64,000 nucleotides of DNA, taken from contig JAFSVU010000054.1 in assembly GCA_017444825.1 (NCBI GenBank), forward strand, positions 20,169-84,168. Direction: 5' to 3'. The number at the start of each line of letters is the position of its first letter. Within the stretch, counting starts at the first letter, position 1. The notes beneath the pieces are model-generated. The model was given only the letters and a program-made list of their open reading frames with translations. It made no database searches and was not told the DNA's origin. Below, in pieces: positions 1,587-12,885 of this stretch. A program made the translations under genes and the position numbers. This DNA is from Clostridia bacterium. Lineage in GTDB: Bacteria > Bacillota > Clostridia > UBA1212.

Positions 1587-3827
1587 GTGATCACACTTAT
1601 CGAAAACGGCGTCTACTACGTGGACGGGACAATACAGGAAAAAGGGCTTCCGGGGGAAAGTGCCCGCGAAGCGTCAAAGAAGACCATAGCTGCAGGCATA
1701 TTGAAGGCCCATGACGAGGGCGACGGCGAGGGTCTGTTAAAGCTCAAATTCGACGCTCTTGCGTCTCACGATATAACTTACGTCGGTATCATCCAGACGG
1801 CCAGAGCCAGCGGGCTGGAAAAATTCCCGGTACCTTACGTGCTTACCAACTGCCACAACAGCCTCTGCGCCGTGGGCGGTACAATAAATGAGGACGACCA
1901 CGTTTTCGGTCTCTCCGCTGCGGTGAAGTACGGCGGCATATTCGTTCCTCCTCACCAGGCGGTCATCCACCAGTACATGCGGGAGATGATGAGCGGCTGC
2001 GGAAAGATGATCATCGGCTCTGACAGCCACACAAGATACGGAGCTCTCGGAACAATGGCCGTGGGCGAGGGAGGCCCGGAGCTTGTAAAGCAGCTCCTGG
2101 GAAGGAAATATGAGATCAAAAAGCCGGACGTGGTATTGGTTTATCTCAAGGGAAAACCGGGCCGCGGAGCAGGTCCCCAGGATATAGCCCTTGCCATCAT
2201 CGGAAAAGTGTTCAAGGCGGGTTTTGTGAAGAACTGCGTCATGGAGTTTGCGGGCCCCGGGATCGCAAATCTTTCGGTGGATTACAGAAACGGTATCGAC
2301 GTTATGACCACGGAGACCGCCTGCCTCAGCTCCATCTGGATGACGGACGAGAAGGTGAAGGATTACTACCGGATCCACGGCAGGGAGCAGGACTATAAAA
2401 AGCTGGAGCCCGGAAACGGCGCTTACTACGACAAGGCCATAGTGGTGGATCTTGACAAGGCGGAGCCAATGATCGCGCTTCCTTTCCACCCGGGCAATGC
2501 CTACACGCTTAAGGATTTCATCGCGAGTGCCGCGGACCTTCTCAGAGAGACCGAAAAACGGGCGTATGACGTGGTGGGCGAGAAGGCAAAGCTGTTCCCT
2601 CTTACATCCAAGGTCAGAAACGGCAAGGTCATGGTGGACCAGGGCGTCATCGCAGGCTGCTCGGGCGGCACCTACGAGAACATAACAAAGGCGTCTCACA
2701 TCTTAAAAGGCGGTTCCACCGGCTCCGGAAGCTACACGTTAAACGTATACCCCGCCAGCCAGCCCGTGAACCTGGCCCTCATGAAGAACGGGGCCATCGC
2801 GGATCTTATGAGCGCAGGCGCAGCGGTGAAGACCGCTTTCTGCGGACCCTGCTTCGGCGCAGGCGACGTTCCTTCGAACAACGCCTTCTCCATAAGGCAC
2901 ACCACCAGAAACTTCCCCAACAGAGAGGGCTCGAGACCTCAGGACGGACAGCTTTCCTGGGTGGCGCTTATGGATGCGATGTCAATTGCCGCGACCTCTG
3001 CGGCGGGCGGTGTGCTCACATCTGCTGCTGACGTTGATTTTGACGACAGTGTTCCCGCTTATCAGTTCGATGACTCAAGCTACAGGGCAAGGGTGTTTAA
3101 CGGTTTCGGCAAAGCCGAGAAAAAAGCCGATCTGGTATTCGGCCCCAATATCACCGACTGGCCCAAGATCCCCGCTCTTGAGGAAAACCTGCTGCTTTCG
3201 GTGGCATCCGTTATCTCCGACGAGGTGACCACCACCGACGAGCTCATCCCCAGCGGAGAGACCTCGTCCTACAGATCGAATCCTCTGAGACTGGCGGAGT
3301 TTGCCCTCTCAAGAAAGGACCCCGCATACGTGGCGGAGGCAAAGAGGGTGGCAAAAGCAAACGAACTGAAGCTGGAGGGCGCCTCCCCGGATATGTTTGA
3401 CGGTATCGAAGGCGCAGACCCGTCGGATACGGCTGTTGCCAGCGTTGTCGTGGCCAAGAGACCCGGCGACGGCTCCGCAAGAGAACAGGCCGCTTCCTGC
3501 CAGAGAGTTCTCGGCGGCGGGGCGAACATTGCCCTTGCATACGCCACAAAGCGCTACAGAAGCAATCTCCTCAACTGGGGCATGCTCCCCTTCATCACCG
3601 ACGACGAGTCGCTGTTTGAGGGCGGTCTCGACAGGGGCGACCGCATATTCATAAAGGGAATAAAGGCCTGGGTAGAAAGCGGACAGGATGGAATAAAGGC
3701 CGAAATATACGGTAAAGAAGGCAAAAAGAAGACTGTGACGCTGACCCTCGGGGACATCACCTCAAGCGAGCGGGAGGTGCTTCTCAAGGGCTGCCTCATG
3801 AACTACTACAAGAGTCAGAACAAATGA
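1587..3827 (+). CDS. Aconitase-family [4Fe-4S] hydratase (YbhJ-like)
   Basis: GTG start after AAAGGCGGT; motifs HDIT, GSDSHTRYG, AGCSGG, CGPCFG, TTRNFPNREG, TTDELIP and GDGSAREQA. Confidence 0.9.
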   Translation: MITLIENGVYYVDGTIQEKGLPGESAREASKKTIAAGILKAHDEGDGEGLLKLKFDALASHDITYVGIIQTARASGLEKFPVPYVLTNCHNSLCAVGGTINEDDHVFGLSAAVKYGGIFVPPHQAVIHQYMREMMSGCGKMIIGSDSHTRYGALGTMAVGEGGPELVKQLLGRKYEIKKPDVVLVYLKGKPGRGAGPQDIALAIIGKVFKAGFVKNCVMEFAGPGIANLSVDYRNGIDVMTTETACLSSIWMTDEKVKDYYRIHGREQDYKKLEPGNGAYYDKAIVVDLDKAEPMIALPFHPGNAYTLKDFIASAADLLRETEKRAYDVVGEKAKLFPLTSKVRNGKVMVDQGVIAGCSGGTYENITKASHILKGGSTGSGSYTLNVYPASQPVNLALMKNGAIADLMSAGAAVKTAFCGPCFGAGDVPSNNAFSIRHTTRNFPNREGSRPQDGQLSWVALMDAMSIAATSAAGGVLTSAADVDFDDSVPAYQFDDSSYRARVFNGFGKAEKKADLVFGPNITDWPKIPALEENLLLSVASVISDEVTTTDELIPSGETSSYRSNPLRLAEFALSRKDPAYVAEAKRVAKANELKLEGASPDMFDGIEGADPSDTAVASVVVAKRPGDGSAREQAASCQRVLGGGANIALAYATKRYRSNLLNWGMLPFITDDESLFEGGLDRGDRIFIKGIKAWVESGQDGIKAEIYGKEGKKKTVTLTLGDITSSEREVLLKGCLMNYYKSQNK

Positions 3828-3865
3828 CCGGGACCGGTCCAACAAGATATAAAGGAGATAACGAC

Positions 3866-4516
3866 ATGAAAAAAATTGCAAAAGCGGCGTCAATGATCCT
3901 TGCGGCGGTATTGGTTATTCTGTGCCTCGCCGGATGCGCCGGAAGCGGAGATGAATACAAAAACGCGCCGCTCCCGATAGTTACCATCGTGGTCAAGGAT
4001 TACGGAACCTTGACGGCGGAGCTTTACCCTGCCATCGCTCCGGAGACTGTCAAGAACTTTATCAGCTTGGCAAACAGCGGCTTCTACAACGGTCTCACCT
4101 TCCACCGCGTGATAAGCGGCTTCATGATCCAGGGCGGCGATCCCAAGGGCAACGGTGGTGGCGGTCCCGGCTACTGCATAAAGGGAGAGTACGAAGCAAA
4201 CGGCTTTAAGAACGAGCTAAAGCACACAAAAGGTGTCCTTTCCATGGCCAGAAAATCAAATCCTTACGTAAAACCCGACCCCTACATGGACAGTGCGGGC
4301 TCCCAGTTCTTTATCATGCAGGCGACGGCGACCCACCTCGACGGAAGCTATGCGGCCTTCGGGAAGGTCATTGACGGACTTGAAATAATCGACACCATCG
4401 CGGGACTCCCCACCGATTCGAACGACAAACCGAGGGTGACCGTTACCATCGAATCCATAACCGTTGACACAAAGGGAATCACGTACGGCGAGCCCAAAAA
4501 GCTTCCCGAAATCTGA
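3866..4516 (+). CDS. Cyclophilin-type peptidyl-prolyl isomerase, lipoprotein
   Basis: AAAGGAGA RBS, lipobox LAGC, FHRVISGFMIQGGDP, SAGSQFFI. Confidence 0.92.
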   Translation: MKKIAKAASMILAAVLVILCLAGCAGSGDEYKNAPLPIVTIVVKDYGTLTAELYPAIAPETVKNFISLANSGFYNGLTFHRVISGFMIQGGDPKGNGGGGPGYCIKGEYEANGFKNELKHTKGVLSMARKSNPYVKPDPYMDSAGSQFFIMQATATHLDGSYAAFGKVIDGLEIIDTIAGLPTDSNDKPRVTVTIESITVDTKGITYGEPKKLPEI

Positions 4517-4535
4517 TATCAAAAAGGAGAAACCA

Positions 4536-5051
4536 ATGAACCCGACAGTAACACTTGCAATAAAAGACCTGGGAACCGTCAAGATAGAGCTTATGCCCGA
4601 CATCGCCCCGAATACAGTGAAGAATTTCATCTCCCTTGTTAACAAGGGCTTCTACGACGGCCTCAGATTCCACCGCGTGATCAGCGGCTTCATGATACAG
4701 GGCGGCGACCCCAAGGGCAACGGCACAGGCGGCCCGGGCTATTCCATCAAGGGCGAGTTCTCCTCCAACGGCTTCGCGAACAGCCTCAAGCACGAGCGCG
4801 GCGTCATCTCGATGGCGAGGGCCATGAACCCCAATTCCGCAGGCTCCCAGTTCTTCATCATGCACAAGGACTCACCCCATCTTGACAGGCAGTACGCGGC
4901 TTTCGGCAAGGTCACAGAGGGCATCGAAGTGGTGGACAAGATCGCTGCGACGCCAACAGACTACTACGACGCGCCTCTTAAGCCTGTGATAATCGAAAAA
5001 GCCGTATGCGATACCTTCGGCGTGGAATACGGCGAGCCGGAGAAGGTCTGA
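4536..5051 (+). CDS. ppiB: Cyclophilin-type peptidyl-prolyl isomerase, cytoplasmic
   Basis: AAGGAG RBS, FHRVISGFMIQGGDP, SMARA..PNSAGSQFFI, no signal peptide. Confidence 0.92.
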   Translation: MNPTVTLAIKDLGTVKIELMPDIAPNTVKNFISLVNKGFYDGLRFHRVISGFMIQGGDPKGNGTGGPGYSIKGEFSSNGFANSLKHERGVISMARAMNPNSAGSQFFIMHKDSPHLDRQYAAFGKVTEGIEVVDKIAATPTDYYDAPLKPVIIEKAVCDTFGVEYGEPEKV

Positions 5052-6048: not shown

Positions 6049-6099
6049 TAGATTGCCGGGTATGCCCGCAAGGGCTTGATTAATTTAGGAGGAACTGTT

Positions 6100-6375
6100 A
6101 TGCCTTACGCAAAAAAAGAAGGTAAAGGTGCCGATAAATACGAGGGTAAGGGCCAGATGAGCAAGAAACCCAGAAAAAAGGTTTGCCGTTTCTGCGCCGA
6201 TAAGACCGAGCATATCGATTACAAGGAATTCCAGAAACTCAGGAACTTTGTTACTGAGAGAGGTAAGATCCTTCCGAGAAGAATGACCGGAACCTGCGCT
6301 AAGCACCAGAGAGAGCTGACAACAGCTGTCAAGAGAGCCAGACACGTTGCGTTGCTGCCGTTTACAGCAGAGTGA
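6100..6375 (+). CDS. rpsR: 30S ribosomal protein S18 (zinc-binding form)
   Basis: KVCRFC...IDYK...[19 protein letters not shown]...ARHVALLPF. Confidence 0.97.
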
Positions 6376-6399
6376 TGTAAAGCTCATGTAACAATAGCT

Positions 6400-6437
6400 A
6401 AAAGAGAGATCACAGTGATTTATGGTCTCTCTTTTTT
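6400..6437 (+). terminator. Intrinsic (probably bidirectional) terminator after rpsR
   Basis: AAAAGAGAGATCA...TGGTCTCTCTTTTTT. Confidence 0.8.
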
Positions 6438-6525
6438 ATGCTACTGCGATGGGCTACTATTGCTACATAAATCAATAACACTTTGAAACTTTCACGTCCA
6501 AAACAAAAAGCTCAGCTAAGGGCCC

Positions 6526-7536
6526 CTAAACTTTTTTTTCGCGGGTTTCAGCGATTTCTGAGGGCGCCATGTTTTCCTTCTTCTTTTTCTTTATCACCGT
6601 CAGGACCACAACGACCGCCGCGGCTGTGAACAGGAATATACCCCCGCTCAGATAATACGGCCAAATCACAGGTTTGACGAACGCGTCCGGGAAATGTGTT
6701 TTAAAATCATCAATATTTACGCCGAAATAAAGCTCGATATTTGAATAATCTCCGGTCGCGGGGTGAAATTCAGTTGCGACAGTCTCTGTCATTTCGGATG
6801 ATATTCCGCCGTCTCCATCATTTTCAATAAACTCTTTGATCATGTCAACTGCGCGTTCAAGCTCTTCCCCGACCCGGATTATTCTTTTGCCGTTTGTAAC
6901 ATTTACATCCCAGATAGTATTCATAATCAAATAAAAGAATTCGTCATAATCATCTTTCACATAAAAACAGGTTCCAACATAAGATACATTGACAAGCCTA
7001 ACAAAACGTGGATCTATGATTTCGCTTCTTCCGCTTTTTATCCTTATATCTTCCGCAAAATCAGCATAATTCAATGACATGAGCTCATCCGGATATTCTT
7101 CGTTGATTGTGTCTATTCCCTCCATTCCTTGCCTGATTGCTTTTCCGTTCTTTAACTCAACAACAAGAACCGCACTGTAGAAAGGTTGTGATCTTCCCAT
7201 ATATTGCAGATTTCGCAGGCTGACCGCATACGAATGTTCTCCGCCAGTTGTCACAGGAGAAAGAGCTATTGCGTCCCCGCATTTATATCCTTTCGCGGTT
7301 TCTTTGTCATACAAAATATAATAGTAAAACGGAGTAACAGAACCGGGAACAACACACTCTCTTTCAACATGCGGAAGTATATCAAGCACCGCTTCCTGCT
7401 CTTGTTTTGAAGCATAAACTGTCAGTGTCTTTTCACATTCCCCGTTCACACCAAAGGCAATAGTTGCTGATATTGAAACCACAACCAAAGCCAAACATAG
7501 CGAAGAAAAAAACAGTATTATCTTTTTCATAGCCAT
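6526..7536 (-). CDS. Uncharacterised exported protein with C-terminal membrane anchor (partner copy 2)
   Basis: N-terminal signal peptide, C-terminal TM helix plus poly-Lys, GGAGAGG RBS; paralogue of 7890-8879. Confidence 0.8.
   Translation of the reverse strand: MAMKKIILFFSSLCLALVVVSISATIAFGVNGECEKTLTVYASKQEQEAVLDILPHVERECVVPGSVTPFYYYILYDKETAKGYKCGDAIALSPVTTGGEHSYAVSLRNLQYMGRSQPFYSAVLVVELKNGKAIRQGMEGIDTINEEYPDELMSLNYADFAEDIRIKSGRSEIIDPRFVRLVNVSYVGTCFYVKDDYDEFFYLIMNTIWDVNVTNGKRIIRVGEELERAVDMIKEFIENDGDGGISSEMTETVATEFHPATGDYSNIELYFGVNIDDFKTHFPDAFVKPVIWPYYLSGGIFLFTAAAVVVVLTVIKKKKKENMAPSEIAETREKKV
6546..6896. repeat. Homology block B, copy 2 (3' part of partner gene)
   Basis: Highly similar to 7904-8272 at DNA level, with one internal indel. 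Confidence 0.9.
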
Positions 7537-7549
7537 ATCAATCCTCTCC

Positions 7550-7842
7550 CTAATTACAGATATAAAATTCGTTCATCTTAAACTCGAATCCCCGCAGGTT
7601 AACAAAACCGGACGAAAACAGTTGTTCTTCGGTTAACGCATATGGTTTACCGTTTGCAGGATTCCACAGAGTATAAAATGTTGTTCCTTCATCATAAGAT
7701 TTGCCGGTCGCTACCATAGCATGGCCATACGATTCATTGTTAATCTTTATCATCGCAGAAACATAGACATATCTTCCGTTGTCAAGTTCATTATTGAATG
7801 TGTTTATTAACGAAGGTGTCCAGCCCAGAAGAAAAACTTTTT
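7550..7842 (-). pseudogene. Orphan C-terminal fragment of a papain-like cysteine protease
   Basis: Reads KVFLLGWTPSLINTFNNELDNGRYVYVS-AMIKINNESYGHAMV...LWNP...FYICN. It has no catalytic Cys region and no credible start. Confidence 0.8.
7761..7842. repeat. Homology block A, copy 2
   Basis: 80 of 82 nt identical to 9106-9187 by manual alignment. Confidence 0.92.
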
Positions 7843-7889
7843 GCCTGCCGGCATACTGCCCGTGATCAAAACAGACTGCCTGGAAACTG

Positions 7890-8879
7890 TTACCTTCCTT
7901 CGATTTCAGCGATTTCTGAGGGCGCCATGTTTTTCTTCTTTTTCTTTATCACCGTCAGAACCACAACGACCGCCGCGGCTGAGAACAGGATTATACCCCC
8001 GCTCAGAAAATACGGCCAAATCACAGGTTTGACGAACGCGTCCGGGAAATGAGTTTTAAAATCATCGATATTTACGCCAAAATAAAGCTCAATATTTGAA
8101 TAATCTCCGGTCGCGGGGTGAAATTCAGCTGCGACAGTCTCTGTCATACCGGATGATGTTCCGCCGACTCCACTTCTGATGGATATTAATCTTTCTTTCT
8201 CAATAAACTCTTTGATCGTATCAACTGCGCGTTCGAGCTCTTCCCCGACCCGGATTATTCTTTTGCCGTTTGTTATATCCGTTTCTCCTATATCCCAGAA
8301 GAATTGGTAAAAGAATTCATCCTCACCGTCATTTATGTAAAAGCACAGGCCTGCAGAAGGTATGTGAACAAGACGGACAAATTGCGGATCAATTAACTCA
8401 GTTTTACCGCTCTTGATTCTTATGTCCTCGGCCATAACAGAGTAGTTAACCCCTATGTTAACCTCCGGATGACACTGGAGTACATGTTCCTTTACAAGTC
8501 CGTTCTTAACACTGATATCCATAAGTCCGCTTTTATAATGCTCTCCGTAATATGTGAATTCTTTCAGAGTAACAAGGTACATATGTTCGCCGTTTATTAC
8601 CGAGCTTTTTAACTCAATTTTATCTCCGGCTTTATAACCAACGTCCTTTGCACTGTTATATATGCTGAAAGTGTAGACGGGAGTGATTTCTTCTTGAATA
8701 ACGTAATCCCTTAATGCCGACGGGATTGCCTCCATTATCGCTTCCTGCTCTTCTTTCGATGCATAAACTGTTAGGATCTTTTCACCATTTTCGGCAAAAC
8801 TGATCAGAAAACAGCCTGATATAACTATGATCATGATTACTAAGAAAGATAAAAAAAATGAACATTTATTTTTACGCAT
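7890..8879 (-). CDS. Uncharacterised exported protein with C-terminal membrane anchor (partner copy 1)
   Basis: Signal peptide, C-terminal TM plus poly-Lys; C-terminal ~110 aa nearly identical to 6526-7536 apart from one indel. Confidence 0.8.
   Translation of the reverse strand: MRKNKCSFFLSFLVIMIIVISGCFLISFAENGEKILTVYASKEEQEAIMEAIPSALRDYVIQEEITPVYTFSIYNSAKDVGYKAGDKIELKSSVINGEHMYLVTLKEFTYYGEHYKSGLMDISVKNGLVKEHVLQCHPEVNIGVNYSVMAEDIRIKSGKTELIDPQFVRLVHIPSAGLCFYINDGEDEFFYQFFWDIGETDITNGKRIIRVGEELERAVDTIKEFIEKERLISIRSGVGGTSSGMTETVAAEFHPATGDYSNIELYFGVNIDDFKTHFPDAFVKPVIWPYFLSGGIILFSAAAVVVVLTVIKKKKKNMAPSEIAEIEGR
7904..8272. repeat. Homology block B, copy 1
   Basis: Highly similar to 6546-6896. Confidence 0.9.
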
Positions 8880-8894
8880 TTAACCTACTCTCTT

Positions 8895-9737
8895 TCAATT
8901 GCAAATATAAAAAACTTTTAATAACAGACTCATCTCATTAAAAGGTATTCCATTGGATGAAAACAACTCACTTTGTGTAACATATACAGTTCTGCCGGAT
9001 GCCGGGTTCCACAGGGCGTATTTTGTTGTCCCATCCTCGTTTTTTTTGTCTGTTATCACCATTGCGTGGTAGTATGTGTCGCTGTTGCTTATCACTTCCA
9101 TTGAGACATAGACATATCTTCCGTTGTCAAGTTCATTATTGAACGTGTTTATTAACGAAGGTGTCCAGCCCAGGAGAAAAACTTTTTCTTTCTTTTCTAT
9201 GTTCATCGTGTTGTATGATGCTAACTGGAGCGCGGCAACCGTATCAGAAGAACTGCCCGACAAGTCCTCGTCAGTTCCTTTTATCAGATAAACAATGTAA
9301 TGCTGTCCTGCGTCGGCGGTTTTTAAGGTGTTATATTGTTCGCCGTAACACTTTATTGTTGCCCCTCCACCGACTGGCGTGTATTCGTGTAATCCGTCGT
9401 AATACCCCAGAATCATTACCCCTTCCGGCAATGGGTTGTTTGATGCTGTATTTCCACCGTTATGTACCCCAACACGTTTGGCGGCTGCAGCCCAGCACCA
9501 GTGATCTTTGTTCTGTAGATCTGGATTTGGCAGACGCTCAACACGGGCGGTGAATTTGCTGTAATCAGAAGCTGTCGAGTTGAAGAACGCACGCATTTCG
9601 GATGTTCCTGCCTCTCTCGCAAACAGGCTTCCTGCGTTGTTTATTGTTGCGATATCGGTATTCGTTGAAATCCATGACGCGTTATGAACATTGCTTACGG
9701 TAAGTGTTTCAGAATACCTGCATGAAACTATTCCCAA
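8895..9737 (-). CDS. Papain-fold cysteine protease (C39/C70-like) with a partial Ig-like (Big_2) domain; probably 5'-truncated
   Basis: Q-NKDHW-C-WAAA, HAMVI and LWNP motifs; N-terminal 'WISTNTDIATINNAGSL..AGTS' is Big_2-like. TTG start lacks RBS and signal peptide; in-frame stop at 9774-9776. Confidence 0.72.
   Translation of the reverse strand: MGIVSCRYSETLTVSNVHNASWISTNTDIATINNAGSLFAREAGTSEMRAFFNSTASDYSKFTARVERLPNPDLQNKDHWCWAAAAKRVGVHNGGNTASNNPLPEGVMILGYYDGLHEYTPVGGGATIKCYGEQYNTLKTADAGQHYIVYLIKGTDEDLSGSSSDTVAALQLASYNTMNIEKKEKVFLLGWTPSLINTFNNELDNGRYVYVSMEVISNSDTYYHAMVITDKKNEDGTTKYALWNPASGRTVYVTQSELFSSNGIPFNEMSLLLKVFYICN
9106..9187. repeat. Homology block A, copy 1
   Basis: 80 of 82 nt identical to 7761-7842. 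Confidence 0.92.
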
Positions 9738-9801
9738 ATCCGAAAGAAAAAAGAGGGCTCCGCGCTTTGCGTGTTATTGCCGGTAAAACTTATAAAAGCG
9801 T

Positions 9802-12800
9802 TCAGTCGTAGGCTTTCAGCTTGCCTTCCTCGATCAGCTTGATCACCACGTCGGCGATCTCCGGGTCAAACTGGATGCCCTTGCATCTCTCGAATTCGGC
9901 CACGATCTTCTCCTTCGGGTAGGGCTCTTTGTAGACACGCTTTGTCGCCATGGCGTCGAAACAGTCTGCGCAGCAGATGATGCGGGCAATAAGCGGGATG
10001 TCCTCGCCTTTCAGTCCTTCGGGGTAGCCACCTCCGCCGTATTTCTCGTGGTGATACTTGGCGCCTTCCACAATGTTGGGGATAGTGGAGATGTCCTTCA
10101 GGATCTTTGAGCCCTTTGTGGTGTGGCTCTTCATGATGTCAAACTCTTCGTCAGTGAGCCTGCCGGGCTTGTTGAGGATTGCGTCGGGGATGCCGATCTT
10201 TCCGATGTCGTGGAGAAGGGCGGTGTAGTAGAGGTTCTCGAGACTGTCGCCTTCCATGCCCATGGCTTCCGCGATGATCCTGGAGTAGCGTCCGACGCGT
10301 ATGGAGTGGCCGTTGGTGTATGCGTCCTTGGCGTCAATGGTGCGGGCAATGGCCTCGATGGATTCAATGGTGATGCCCTTGAGCTCCGCCTCTCTTGCCT
10401 TGGCGTTTTTGGCCTTCTTGTGGATGATCAGGAAGTTGATGAGGAAGATGAGTAGAATGGCGACCAAACCCGTCACGATCCAGAACCAGGTCTGCTCGTA
10501 GATCTGCTTATCCTTGATGAGGACAATGTCGATCTCGTTGCTGACAAGGCCGTTTGAGTCGATCACGTAAACGTGGAACGTGTGCCTGCCTCCGGAGATG
10601 TTCGTGTATGAGATGGTAAGATCGTCTGCGATTTGAATGTAATCGCTGTCGACACCGTCAAGCTTGTAGCAAACCGTGTGGCCCTTGTTGGGCTTGAACT
10701 CGAGGATCGAAAGGTTGAATTCGATACGGGAGGCGTTCTTCTTAAGCTTGATCTCGTTCCCGTACATCTGGACGCTGTCAACGTTGACGCAGTTGACGGC
10801 GATCTTCGCGGGGATGTCCCGGTCCGTTGAACCTGCGAAATCGTAGGCAAAAATACCGTCTGTAGTCTGAAAATAGTACCTGCAGGTCTCCTCGTCGTAA
10901 TAACCCGATGTGTTGGCCTGAATGGGCCTGAGGCCGTTGGTGGCGTCGTAGAGATCGTAATTCACAAGCCTGCCGCTCGAGTCAAGATTTGAGGGGTCGA
11001 GAGAGTCGGTGATGTAGGCCTGGGTCTGGCTGGCTATAACGTACTTGTAGGACGTGTTCCCGCTGCCGTCCTTTACCTTAACTTTTGATATCTCCACGAT
11101 GGAGCCCTTGACGTAGGGGATGGTGATCTCTCTGTTCACAGCCTCGCCGTCGATCACTTCTCTGCAGAAGAACCGCCCGTTCAGGTTGTAGTATACCTTG
11201 TCGCCGTCAATGAGGAACTTCAGCCTGTTGCCGCTCACCTGCTTCTCCGTGGAGATCTCTTCGGTGACCGTGAAGTCGTCGTTGATGGTAAATATTCCGG
11301 CGGTGTGGTTGAAGGCGACCTTTCCGTCTCCGGTCCTGCTTATGTAGATGGTGCTCTTGTCGGTGTGGTAGACCGAAATCTTGCTTCCGTCGAATCTGTA
11401 GACTCCGCCCGACTGGTAGCCCACGGCAAGGAACCCGTCAAAAGCTCTCAAACATCTGACGTTGGTAAGGTCACCGCTTTGGTAGGTGTTCTCCTTGTCC
11501 TCTTTGAAACTGACGATATTCGCTTCATCGCCAAGGAAATCATTGTCGTATATCACCACGTCCCCGGTGCCCGGATCGTACTCCACAATGCCGAGGCCGT
11601 AGTCCGCAAAGTACAGTTTGCCGTTAAAGTATTCCACGTCCCTGAAGTCGTAGGGCACGCTTCCGGGTTCAACACCTTTTTCGGCAAAATAGGACTGAAT
11701 GCCCAGCATCACCGGGTTGTCGGTGCCGTCCGCCGGAACGATAGAGCCGCTTCTTATGTCAAACAGAACGAGGCCCGTCTTTCCGAGGCAGATGTAAAGG
11801 GTGTCGCCGCAGCGCTCGAGGGCGTAGACCGTTTTGCTCTTGCCCGCATATTTTTCGGAAGCCCACAGGACGTCGTCAAAGAGAAGGTCCATGAGGGCGT
11901 TCTTGGTTATGAGGGAGACGCCGGATGAGGAAACGTTGTGGCTTGCGATCCAGAGGTTTCCTTCGTAGTCTACCATAAGGTCGACGATCTGGGTCTTGTT
12001 TTCCAGATTGTCCATCGTCGAGTATTCGCCGTTCTCGTATATGCAGTAAACGCCTTCCTTTTCGCACCCGACGAAAAGCAGTTTGTCGTTTTCCGAATAC
12101 ATGGCGCAGTTGACCTGGTCCGTGATCATCGGATACTGAACGGAGGAAAGGGCATTGGCGTTAAGATCGTATCCCGTGATGCCGGATGTCGTGCAGATGA
12201 AAAGAGTATCGCCGAAGATATAGAGCTCCAGAATGAACGGGTTGTCGAAGATCTTTACGTGTTTATCGCTGTAGACGCCGTCGCCGAGCTGGTACAGGAA
12301 TCTGTTTCTTGAGGGATCTGCAACTGCTCTGTTTACGGTCAGGCCTTTGGTCTCCTCCACGAGCTCTGCGGAGCCGGTTTTAACGTCATATGTGAACAGA
12401 CCGATATTGGTGCAGGTGTAGATGATGTCGTTGACCTTATCGTATTCAAGGTCGTAGCACTCGACGGTGACATTGTCCTTTTCGAGAGACTGCCTGACGG
12501 ATTCAAACCCGAGGTCGATCACGGAAAATACGTTGTTTTGATACCGGAAAAGGTTGTTGTACGTCATGATGTAGAGGATGTTGTCCTTCTGAACAAGTCT
12601 CCTGACGTTTATGATATCGTATTCAACACCGTTTTCAACAAAGCTTTTGTATGAGACGAACTCATTTGCGTCGTATCTGGTCAGACCCGAGTACTGGGCG
12701 ACCCACACAAAACCGTCGTCGGTCTGGCACAGGGCCTCGGCACCGGCAACGTCAATATCCACGACCTCTTCGGCTTTATCGATAAGGAATGAGGAGGCCG

Positions 12801-12885
12801 ACACGCCAATGGAAGAAAACAGTGTACAGACTGCCAAAATCAAAGAGAAAAGCAGAGGAACTATTTTTTTCATTTTGTACTTCAT
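9802..12885 (-). CDS. Membrane HD-GYP cyclic-dinucleotide phosphodiesterase with beta-propeller plus Y_Y_Y extracellular sensor
   Basis: Signal peptide, propeller repeats (QTDDGFVWVA, DYEGNLWIAS), YKLDGVD..ISYTNISGGRHTFHV, TM helix, then DAKDAYTNGHS, HDIGK and HHEKYGGGGYP. Confidence 0.9.
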   Translation of the reverse strand: MKYKMKKIVPLLFSLILAVCTLFSSIGVSASSFLIDKAEEVVDIDVAGAEALCQTDDGFVWVAQYSGLTRYDANEFVSYKSFVENGVEYDIINVRRLVQKDNILYIMTYNNLFRYQNNVFSVIDLGFESVRQSLEKDNVTVECYDLEYDKVNDIIYTCTNIGLFTYDVKTGSAELVEETKGLTVNRAVADPSRNRFLYQLGDGVYSDKHVKIFDNPFILELYIFGDTLFICTTSGITGYDLNANALSSVQYPMITDQVNCAMYSENDKLLFVGCEKEGVYCIYENGEYSTMDNLENKTQIVDLMVDYEGNLWIASHNVSSSGVSLITKNALMDLLFDDVLWASEKYAGKSKTVYALERCGDTLYICLGKTGLVLFDIRSGSIVPADGTDNPVMLGIQSYFAEKGVEPGSVPYDFRDVEYFNGKLYFADYGLGIVEYDPGTGDVVIYDNDFLGDEANIVSFKEDKENTYQSGDLTNVRCLRAFDGFLAVGYQSGGVYRFDGSKISVYHTDKSTIYISRTGDGKVAFNHTAGIFTINDDFTVTEEISTEKQVSGNRLKFLIDGDKVYYNLNGRFFCREVIDGEAVNREITIPYVKGSIVEISKVKVKDGSGNTSYKYVIASQTQAYITDSLDPSNLDSSGRLVNYDLYDATNGLRPIQANTSGYYDEETCRYYFQTTDGIFAYDFAGSTDRDIPAKIAVNCVNVDSVQMYGNEIKLKKNASRIEFNLSILEFKPNKGHTVCYKLDGVDSDYIQIADDLTISYTNISGGRHTFHVYVIDSNGLVSNEIDIVLIKDKQIYEQTWFWIVTGLVAILLIFLINFLIIHKKAKNAKAREAELKGITIESIEAIARTIDAKDAYTNGHSIRVGRYSRIIAEAMGMEGDSLENLYYTALLHDIGKIGIPDAILNKPGRLTDEEFDIMKSHTTKGSKILKDISTIPNIVEGAKYHHEKYGGGGYPEGLKGEDIPLIARIICCADCFDAMATKRVYKEPYPKEKIVAEFERCKGIQFDPEIADVVIKLIEEGKLKAYD

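Follow-up and report, generated by a model that had tools for sequence, protein, structure and literature searches.

The question raised by this locus is whether two protease frames and two genes for membrane-anchored proteins, alternating on one strand, form a working system, the remains of one, or a simple duplication. The locus is situated in a stretch of 64,000 nucleotides (nt) from a Clostridia bacterium (assembly GCA_017444825.1, contig JAFSVU010000054.1, positions 20,169 to 84,168), which is called the window below and to which all positions refer; the source genome is a 56-contig draft of rumen/gut Clostridia. On the minus strand, the gene for an HD-GYP-type sensor protein is followed by a protease frame, the gene for partner 1, an orphan frame for a C-terminal protease piece and the gene for partner 2, with the plus-strand genes rpsF, ssb and rpsR to the left of the latter. 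A sequence-only reading of the window had taken this arrangement for a polymorphic protease with a cognate surface inhibitor or immunity protein, parts of which are exchanged as cassettes.

The answer that is favoured here is that the island represents the remains of a polymorphic protease/partner locus with module exchange, in which the partner serves as a membrane inhibitor. Anatomy, truncation, alleles, recombinants and transfer are seen in the sequences; binding, inhibition, toxicity and expression are what we infer. To this statement as a whole we assign a probability of about 0.55. Its structural and evolutionary part, taken alone, is held to be very probable, and for an inhibitor or immunity function of the partner the odds are put slightly below even.

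In an intact locus of this kind, as it occurs in sister species, a Sec-secreted protease with lectin and immunoglobulin-like (Ig-like) domains and without a prodomain is encoded together with a partner on the outer face of the membrane. Throughout the genus, the locus would evolve by module displacement and homologous recombination. The exchanged parts would be old and highly diverged forms of the partner ectodomain, in some cases together with the protease half that carries His and Asn, and they would lie between conserved arms: on the right always the start of the partner C-part (G-x-R-I-[IL]-R-V-G-E), on the left either block A (a short repeat within the protease sequence) or the 5' end of the protease gene. 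Displaced modules would remain downstream as orphans. In the lineage of the window, only a 3' fragment would have been acquired from a donor resembling genome G005 or protein P0085, or would have been kept. The partners, finally, would be membrane-anchored inhibitors that protect the surface from the secreted protease of the cell itself or of neighbouring strains, each ectodomain being matched to one variant of the C-terminal lobe of the protease.

Mosaic units, alleles and transfer

The island comprises two tandem units of about 1.35 kb, arranged head-to-tail on the minus strand at a spacing of 1345-1376 nt. A repeat finder and a global alignment of the units reproduce the anatomy given by the sequence-only reading, including its coordinates, identities and motifs. 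Block A is 96% identical over 85 nt, and 80/82 in the shorter interval first reported (7761-7842 versus 9106-9187). Block B, in the partner C-part, has one stretch of 240 nt with 95% identity (6578-6817 versus 7933-8172) and a second of 85 nt with 92% (6818-6902 versus 8194-8278), and carries indels of 21 and 3 nt. Within the blocks, 23-30 of 30 positions are identical per ungapped window, with lower values only at the indels; between them, the figure is 5-21 per 30-nt window. The motifs HAMV, LWNP, LFSS and FYICN are present in both protease copies. The orphan is 55% identical to variant 1 and is matched by the family hidden Markov model at positions 119-207 only.

In 25-codon windows, synonymous differences are saturated (proportion of synonymous differences, pS, 0.6-1.0) over the protease C-terminal half and the partner N-part, so that the ratio of nonsynonymous to synonymous substitutions (dN/dS) of these variable parts is not estimable. 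The synonymous divergence (dS) of the partner C-part is only 0.05-0.35. The mosaic is therefore far beyond chance, and the common ancestor of the conserved blocks must be far younger than that of the intervening parts; the uniform divergence of a merely decaying duplication is not what is found. As the sequence-only reading had described, the partners are diverged in their N-parts and near-identical in their C-parts. These comparisons support a variable unit that would consist of the C-terminal ~75 residues of the protease and the partner ectodomain, framed by two conserved blocks.

Neither protease frame is a complete gene. The longer one is 97% identical to residues 291-581 of the full-length protein P0085 (581 amino acids, aa), and in two other genomes of the same genus it is matched at 95% within a 595-codon frame (G005) and at 52% within a 589-codon frame (G003). 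Full-length proteins (581-593 aa) are composed of a signal peptide, a Big_2 domain, a ricin-type lectin (RicinB_lectin_2, E 3.8e-7), a second Big_2/Ig-like domain and a C-terminal staphopain-like domain. The window frame corresponds to the last ~283 codons of such a gene. Nucleotide homology to the full-length gene of G005 ends at 9747, and from there on the window continues with the last part of the HD-GYP gene. Further alleles and a full-length parent, both envisaged from the sequence, do occur in relatives (G005, G003, P0085 and P0014). This genome has just two protease pieces and two partner genes; a full-length expressed parent was not found in it, and a complete protease gene is seen only in sister species. 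Two gene calls from other assemblies, P0001 and P0002 (173 and 175 aa), start at an internal Met that lies behind the catalytic Cys. In the lineage of the window only the 3' 3.3 kb arrived or remained, which leaves a protease remnant beside two intact partner genes. An annotation should accordingly treat the protease frames as remnants of a gene and each partner gene as complete.

Strain variation at the site was followed in contigs (not reads) of four public runs from four studies, placed on 6300-10000; linkage was seen within single contigs, and stretches left uncovered in runs X4, X6 and X10 were not counted as evidence. Three structural alleles occur: an empty site (X6), a single recombinant unit (X10) and the tandem (X1, X4 and X6). 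Contigs of X1 tile 6300-10000 without differences, and this run may be the source sample. The junction between partner 1 and the orphan is bridged by contigs of X1, X4 and X6; because these come from three studies, the tandem is not an assembly artefact. The empty site is seen in a 1134-nt contig of X6 (record 18), in which 6441 and 9748 are linked through 44 letters of other sequence. Contigs of X4 and X6 also extend past 9747 into sequence that matches the full-length gene of G005 at 26/30.

The single unit is found in a contig of X10 of 21,087 nt that covers 6300-7760 and 9106-10000. Its joint, from 7760 to 9106, skips 1345 nt and lies inside block A, where 52 nt fit both sides. The resulting unit, directly adjacent to the HD-GYP gene as before, has the conserved N-part joined to the variant-2 C-half and partner 2. 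The same make-up is present in P0002, in which the conserved N-part is followed by variant-2 sequence right after NGRYVYVS; identity between the window protease and P0002 in successive 30-column windows is 100, 86, 96, 70, 43 and 25%. The proposal that the swap point lies in the catalytic domain, between Cys and His, is borne out by this joint, and these natural recombinants support a cassette exchange of the kind that the sequence-only reading had suggested. The end of P0002 is frameshifted, consistent with a 1-nt deletion at 7563 in a contig of X6, 11-13 nt before the orphan stop; the deletion may be read as a sign of decay of the protease remnant in some strains. A scan of metagenome contigs with P0002 returned one irrelevant locus, with 55% identity over 31 residues. 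Variant 1 is accompanied by partner 1 (in the window and G005) and variant 2 by partner 2 (as the orphan of the window and in X10). These pairs are physically linked and are therefore not independent evidence of an interaction.

Comparison with relatives demonstrates transfer. The stretch 7904-9747 is 98.9% identical to G005 over 1844 nt, and the N-part of partner 1 is 99% identical to the partner in that genome, whereas identity is only 75-85% in the housekeeping genes on either side. Unit 1 must therefore have crossed from one species to another in recent times. Among the 21 pairs formed by seven complete partner genes (two partial genes were omitted), 20 have an N-part pS of 0.72-0.87 and an amino acid identity of 39-48%, the exception being partner 1 of the window and the G005 partner. 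The C-parts fall into two types, with a pS of 0.04-0.38 within a type. Between the first partners of G003 (partner A) and G004 the C-part pS is 0.18, below the 0.30 within G003. Since low C-part divergence is also found between species, conversion within a genome is insufficient on its own.

A second case of exchange is provided by G003 and G004, whose flanks are 97.4% identical and whose neighbouring GH106-like proteins are 96% identical. G003 has a protease followed by partners A and B; G004 is without protease. Its first partner shares the promoter-like region, the ribosome-binding site, the ATG and the first ~16 codons, that is, the signal peptide, with the protease of G003 (L012:5880-6050 in G004 versus L009:9192-9360 in G003), in frame and with the protease body gone. 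A different ectodomain follows, with an N-part 44% identical to that of partner A, and from the very start of the partner C-part the two genomes are homologous again, at 96.3%, and remain so through partner B (97.6% at the protein level). This breakpoint coincides with the left edge of block B in the window. A sharply bounded variable end is also seen between the full-length proteins of G003 and P0014, which are 76-100% identical in the N-terminal part (at least 86% in 10 of 11 30-column windows) and 46-86% in the protease domain.

The 61-nt filler between the two units fits the illegitimate joint that a displacement model would predict. No source for the filler (searched as 7830-7915) or for 6376-6545 was found in the seven other genomes of the genus, except for 21 nt of the partner end in G005.

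Function of the partner and rival explanations

Each partner begins with a signal peptide, behind which two alpha+beta modules (residues ~34-140 and ~146-210) lead to a long helix; a disordered linker, then a transmembrane (TM) segment and a poly-Lys/Arg tail complete the protein. A sortase-type anchor was considered and rejected: ~37 residues separate a PATG motif from the hydrophobic segment that follows it, and the Gram_pos_anchor family of Pfam scores E 0.19. The last ~40-50 residues, with the TM anchor and the basic tail, show weak matches (E 1e-5 to 9e-4) at the C-termini of frames of 880-1403 codons in four genomes of the genus (G001:C10, G001:C62, G002:C143, G003:C1:149550 and G004:C47); they may represent a shared C-terminal anchor module or mere hydrophobic low complexity. 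In the X10 contig, partner 2 is longer by 21 nt at window position 6820; the insertion keeps the frame, corresponds to seven extra residues of P0005 and resembles a stretch of partner 1. With such a frame-keeping insertion in both X10 and P0005, the partner linker appears as an indel hotspot.

Foldseek found no match to the partner at E <= 0.001. The weak rows for its fold include N-domains of copper amine oxidases, a designed cystatin-fold protein, cystatins/stefin, NTF2-like proteins, PepSY-type YpmB/YpeB and BLIP-like proteins; these rows, all of them under the trust level, are suggestive of an inhibitor. A predicted complex of the protease domain with the ectodomain of partner 1 scored 0.17 against a mark of 0.32, which counts neither for nor against binding. 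The inhibitor reading fits the retention of partners without protease, the re-wiring of a G004 partner to the protease signal peptide and the age of the alleles, none of which proves it.

The main rival regards the partner as a surface protein with a protease-independent function of its own, as an anchor, receptor, substrate or envelope component. It would be hypervariable through phage or host pressure, the protease debris would be neutral, and the C-part anchor would have been homogenised by conversion. We consider this possible and on the unlikely side. It gains from the carriers that lack a protease: in G001 and G006 the partner gene (partial in G006) lies between pyruvate formate-lyase-like and phosphoribosyltransferase genes, and G004 keeps its partner under a promoter-like region of its own. 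Such protease-free partners fit orphan immunity or, equally, a function without the protease. The weak anchor matches in large frames and the lack of a family or trusted fold assignment for the partner point in the same direction. It is less easily reconciled with the position of the partner, which follows the protease at 14-16 nt on the same strand wherever a protease is present, or with a variable segment that, in the window, spans the protease C-half and the ectodomain as one unit. Conversion within a genome does not by itself account for the low C-part divergence between species.

A more far-reaching version of the inhibitor reading can be imagined, in which the genus possesses a bacteriocin-like system that has escaped description. 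A lectin-targeted protease would attack the surface of relatives, a two-domain ectoprotein would confer immunity, the His/Asn lobe and the ectodomain would be exchanged together among strains and species through recombination at arms inside the genes, and strains without the protease would keep orphan immunity arrays and even place them behind its promoter and signal peptide. This scenario, toxicity included, is offered tentatively and is rather doubtful.

Several points weigh against the reading favoured here, namely a polymorphic locus whose partner inhibits the protease. The VIA-align scores for partner residues 34-140 (Z 4.2-6.1) are below the trust level. In three of the five other carrier species (G001, G004 and G006), no protease lies within 6 kb of the partner. 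Alleles are few: among 5.8 billion clusters, matches at E <= 0.001 amount to 5 proteins for the full-length query and 10 for the partner. In contrast to known polymorphic toxins, no delivery domain of the type V, VI or VII secretion, Rhs/LXG or MafB kind was found; Pfam recognises only Big_2 and the ricin-type lectin in the full-length proteins, besides a Sec signal peptide, and no secretion-system gene was seen among the neighbours (GH106-like, IS3-type transposase, rpsR and HD-GYP genes). As to the order of events, either a tandem was inserted or an insertion into a single unit took place. The truncated protease frame is still open, and read-through could express it. A promoter and terminator scan of 6200-10100 gave 11 promoter-like sites versus 7.3 +/- 2.3 expected, a result that does not rise above expectation.

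The distribution of the partner remains within narrow limits. Strong matches are present in five of the seven other genomes of the genus and a weak one in one more, with none in four genomes of two other genera of the family. Among the genomes searched the family is thus restricted to the genus, and the species collection contains five loci.

According to a third explanation, close to the original proposal, this genome has a working polymorphic protease (8895-9737), whose C-half and immunity gene are swappable with the downstream orphan. The cassette anatomy and the natural block A recombinant are in its favour, as are a 292-codon frame without interruption and the retained set of Gln, Cys, His and Asn. 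Even so it is very improbable. Of the 581-aa parent, ~298 N-terminal residues are gone and with them the signal peptide, and a 5' half is absent elsewhere in the genome, where the missing N-terminal 300 residues gave only 26-29% matches in unrelated large frames. The fragment begins directly after the end of the HD-GYP gene (9747/9748), the TTG start is, as read from the letters, not preceded by a purine-rich stretch, and the X10 recombinant is equally truncated. Because the signal peptide, the lectin and the first Ig domain have been lost and the fragment lies directly behind a neighbouring gene, it most likely gives no working secreted enzyme; the claim of a working polymorphic protease in this genome therefore fails. 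Phase or antigenic variation by silent cassettes was likewise considered and set aside, the would-be expression copy being itself truncated. A simple, uniformly decaying tandem duplication or an assembly artefact, which two head-to-tail units in a multi-contig draft might bring to mind, is hardly credible given the strongly non-uniform divergence, the 98.9% identity of unit 1 to another species as opposed to 89%, in the C-part only, for unit 2 versus G005, and the junction contigs in three studies with a 21-kb single-unit contig in a fourth.

Protease domain and surroundings of the island

The sequence-only reading had described the longer frame as an Ig-like plus papain-fold protease gene. 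The fold stands, with Z values of 14 to staphopains; the gene is not whole, being the 3' half of one that encodes 581-593 aa. Searches of Pfam and NCBIfam assign neither the protease domain nor the partner to a family above cut-off. An exhaustive profile-free search yielded 72 protease-domain representatives at E <= 0.001 (45 at <= 1e-10), mostly C-terminal in proteins of 220-1354 aa. In an alignment of 36 sequences (the window domain and 35 of the 72 representatives, hand-picked for coverage), Q16, C22 (QNKDHWCW), H165 and P186 do not vary; at position 185, where the window has Asn (LWNP), at least 90% of the sequences carry Asp. His and Asn are retained in both variants of the window.

The AlphaFold2 model of the domain (mean confidence, pLDDT, 96.6) has a helix over residues 22-34 that starts at the catalytic Cys. 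The best solved folds are staphopain C (Z 14.1) and staphopain A (Z 14.0), with a root-mean-square deviation of 2.5 A, 150 aligned residues and an identity of 10-12% in the structural alignment. Z is at least 8 for 270 of 974 aligned chains, and among the 50 matches listed all have a papain fold, staphopains coming first. They include the papain-like interbacterial toxins 9l5u_B (Z 11.5) and CdiA-CT 8ssm_A (Z 11.4), over 126-127 residues, and then C39 peptidase domains. By sequence profile, CdiA-CT (8ssm_B) is matched weakly, with E 0.0033, around the His/Asp positions. The domain thus has the features of clan CA papain-like peptidases: a helix at the Cys with an accompanying Gln, His/Asn in a C-terminal beta lobe, and a fold of two lobes. 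Peptidase family C47 gave no Pfam match at E <= 1 or <= 0.1, with only sub-threshold rows for C70 and CEP76, and no Staphopain_pro prodomain was found at E <= 0.1 in the full-length proteins of G005 and G003, in which the protease domain stands directly behind the second Ig-like domain. Scores in an Atlas feature search were no higher than 0.80-0.83. One of the clusters, at 0.80, is labelled 'Staphopain proregion', which is no more than a lead, since shuffled proteins reach 0.8 one-third of the time. The protease is staphopain-like by fold, is not a C47 member by sequence and has no prodomain.

Features of the island and its borders, with positions in the window
Feature	Position	Strand	Remarks
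Strain-variable island	6442..9747 (3306 nt)	.	between rpsR and HD-GYP gene; empty site in X6, end of G005 homology at 9747
rpsR (ribosomal protein S18), left flank	6076..6375	+	Pfam Ribosomal_S18, E 1.6e-27
Partner 2 (336 aa)	6526..7536	-	versus partner 1: N-part 42%, C-part 88% identical
Block B copy 2	6546..6902	-	from repeat comparison
Orphan protease C-terminal piece	7550..7842	-	block A copy 2 at 7758-7842, then variant 2 with His and Asn; without catalytic Cys
Junction filler (61 nt), unit 1/unit 2	7843..7903	-	homologous to neither unit
Partner 1 (329 aa)	7890..8879	-	signal peptide, variable ectodomain of ~200 aa, conserved C-part with TM anchor and poly-Lys tail
Block B copy 1 (partner C-part)	7904..8278	-	92-95% identical to 6546-6902
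5'-truncated protease fragment, variant 1	8895..9773	-	partial second Big_2 and complete staphopain-like domain; no signal peptide
Block A copy 1	9103..9187	-	encodes KVFLLGWTPSLINTFNNELDNGRYVYVS, between catalytic Cys and His
HD-GYP-type sensor protein gene (1027 aa), right flank	9802..12885	-	Pfam HD_5 E 3.1e-32, Y_Y_Y, Reg_prop

The protease frame has 292 codons from stop to stop, its first start being a TTG at 9737. The orphan lies in an open frame of 131 codons (7550-7945), with homology restricted to 7550-7842. The HD-GYP protein has Reg_prop and Y_Y_Y sensor repeats and one TM segment, and the 3' end of its gene is the fixed right border in every filled or empty allele seen. The scan of 6200-10100 showed no terminator-like site on the minus strand behind this gene; a T-run at 9748-9760 is visible in the letters.

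Further away, the window contains two adjacent genes for cyclophilin-type peptidyl-prolyl isomerases (3824-5051; Pfam Pro_isomerase E 1.3e-46 and 8.2e-52), the first with a hydrophobic N-terminal leader and the second without, and the same pair is present in G005. Synteny between the window and G005 ends at a frame for an IS3-type transposase (rve, HTH_21, rve_2), which overlaps the listed start of the full-length protease on the opposite strand (L008:8540-9490). In the same genome, the ~1.8 kb from rpsR to the partner (L008:4000-5813) has no long frame and no match to the window or to the partner and protease profiles.

Known systems and biological meaning

Polymorphic toxin-immunity loci, treated in PMC3150448, PMC3967940, PMC4436062 and PMC4287609 (of which parts were available), provide a close parallel. 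In effector-immunity arrays, according to the available part of PMC5361080, an incoming module displaces the end of the resident effector and the old module is pushed downstream, the displacing DNA being anchored by homology on one side and by an illegitimate joint on the other. As in the CdiA-CT/CdiI, Rhs, MafB and type VI secretion system (T6SS) arrays, the present proteins have a conserved N-part and a sharply bounded variable C-end (window versus P0002, G003 versus P0014), a co-varying downstream gene, a displaced C-end and partner kept downstream, horizontal transfer of modules, and 'immunity' genes that are kept after loss of the toxin.

Differences are equally apparent. In the window the switch occurs inside the catalytic domain, between Cys and His, and not at the start of a domain. 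The partner is an exported, membrane-anchored protein of 330 aa, unlike the small cytoplasmic immunity proteins of these systems. A switch inside a catalytic domain would be paralleled by the nuclease colicins and S-pyocins, in which the fast-evolving unit is the part of the catalytic domain that binds the immunity protein, together with the immunity gene; their folds and delivery are unrelated.

A second group of relatives is formed by proteases with adjacent inhibitor genes. The Bfi and Bti staphostatin-like inhibitors of Bacteroides are encoded beside C10 proteases, carry export signals and are in some cases predicted lipoproteins, and staphostatins are cytoplasmic, as stated in the available part of PMC3462683. 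The present locus resembles the staphopain/staphostatin and Bfi/Bti systems in having a secreted papain-fold protease with a co-oriented adjacent partner gene, and its closest folds are staphopains. Unlike staphopains, the protease has neither a C47 match nor a prodomain; the partner has about three times the size of a staphostatin, and the matches listed include no beta-barrel staphostatin. No cassette polymorphism is described for those systems in the available part of PMC3462683.

Papain-fold toxins with a cognate immunity protein are represented by Cpe1/Cpi1 (9l5u) and by the CdiA-CT of Citrobacter rodentium (8ssm), with Z of 11.4-11.5 to the present domain. Cpe1 acts on GyrB/ParE in the target cytoplasm, is delivered by T6SS or contact-dependent inhibition (CDI) in Gram-negatives and has a cytoplasmic immunity protein (available part of PMC12136450). 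Here, unlike in Cpe1/Cpi1, both proteins are exported, and the carrier is a genus of Clostridia. A literature search, which was not aimed at the family by name because it has none, found no description of this protease/partner pair. Exported inhibitors encoded beside papain-fold proteases are known from Bacteroides, and papain-like toxins with immunity proteins from Gram-negatives; the present locus differs from both in size, location and delivery.

For this genome, the meaning is most likely the more modest one of a degenerate locus whose partner genes are intact orphans. For the genus, the implications could be wider. If the partner is an allele-specific surface inhibitor, a contact-independent polymorphic protease/immunity system would exist in Gram-positive gut anaerobes, one that dispenses with a specialised secretion machine. 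The swap point splits the papain fold between its lobes and therefore offers a natural experiment on which lobe carries the specificity for inhibitor or substrate. If the reading is true, the logic of module displacement known from CDI, Rhs and T6SS would extend to ordinary Sec-secreted enzymes.

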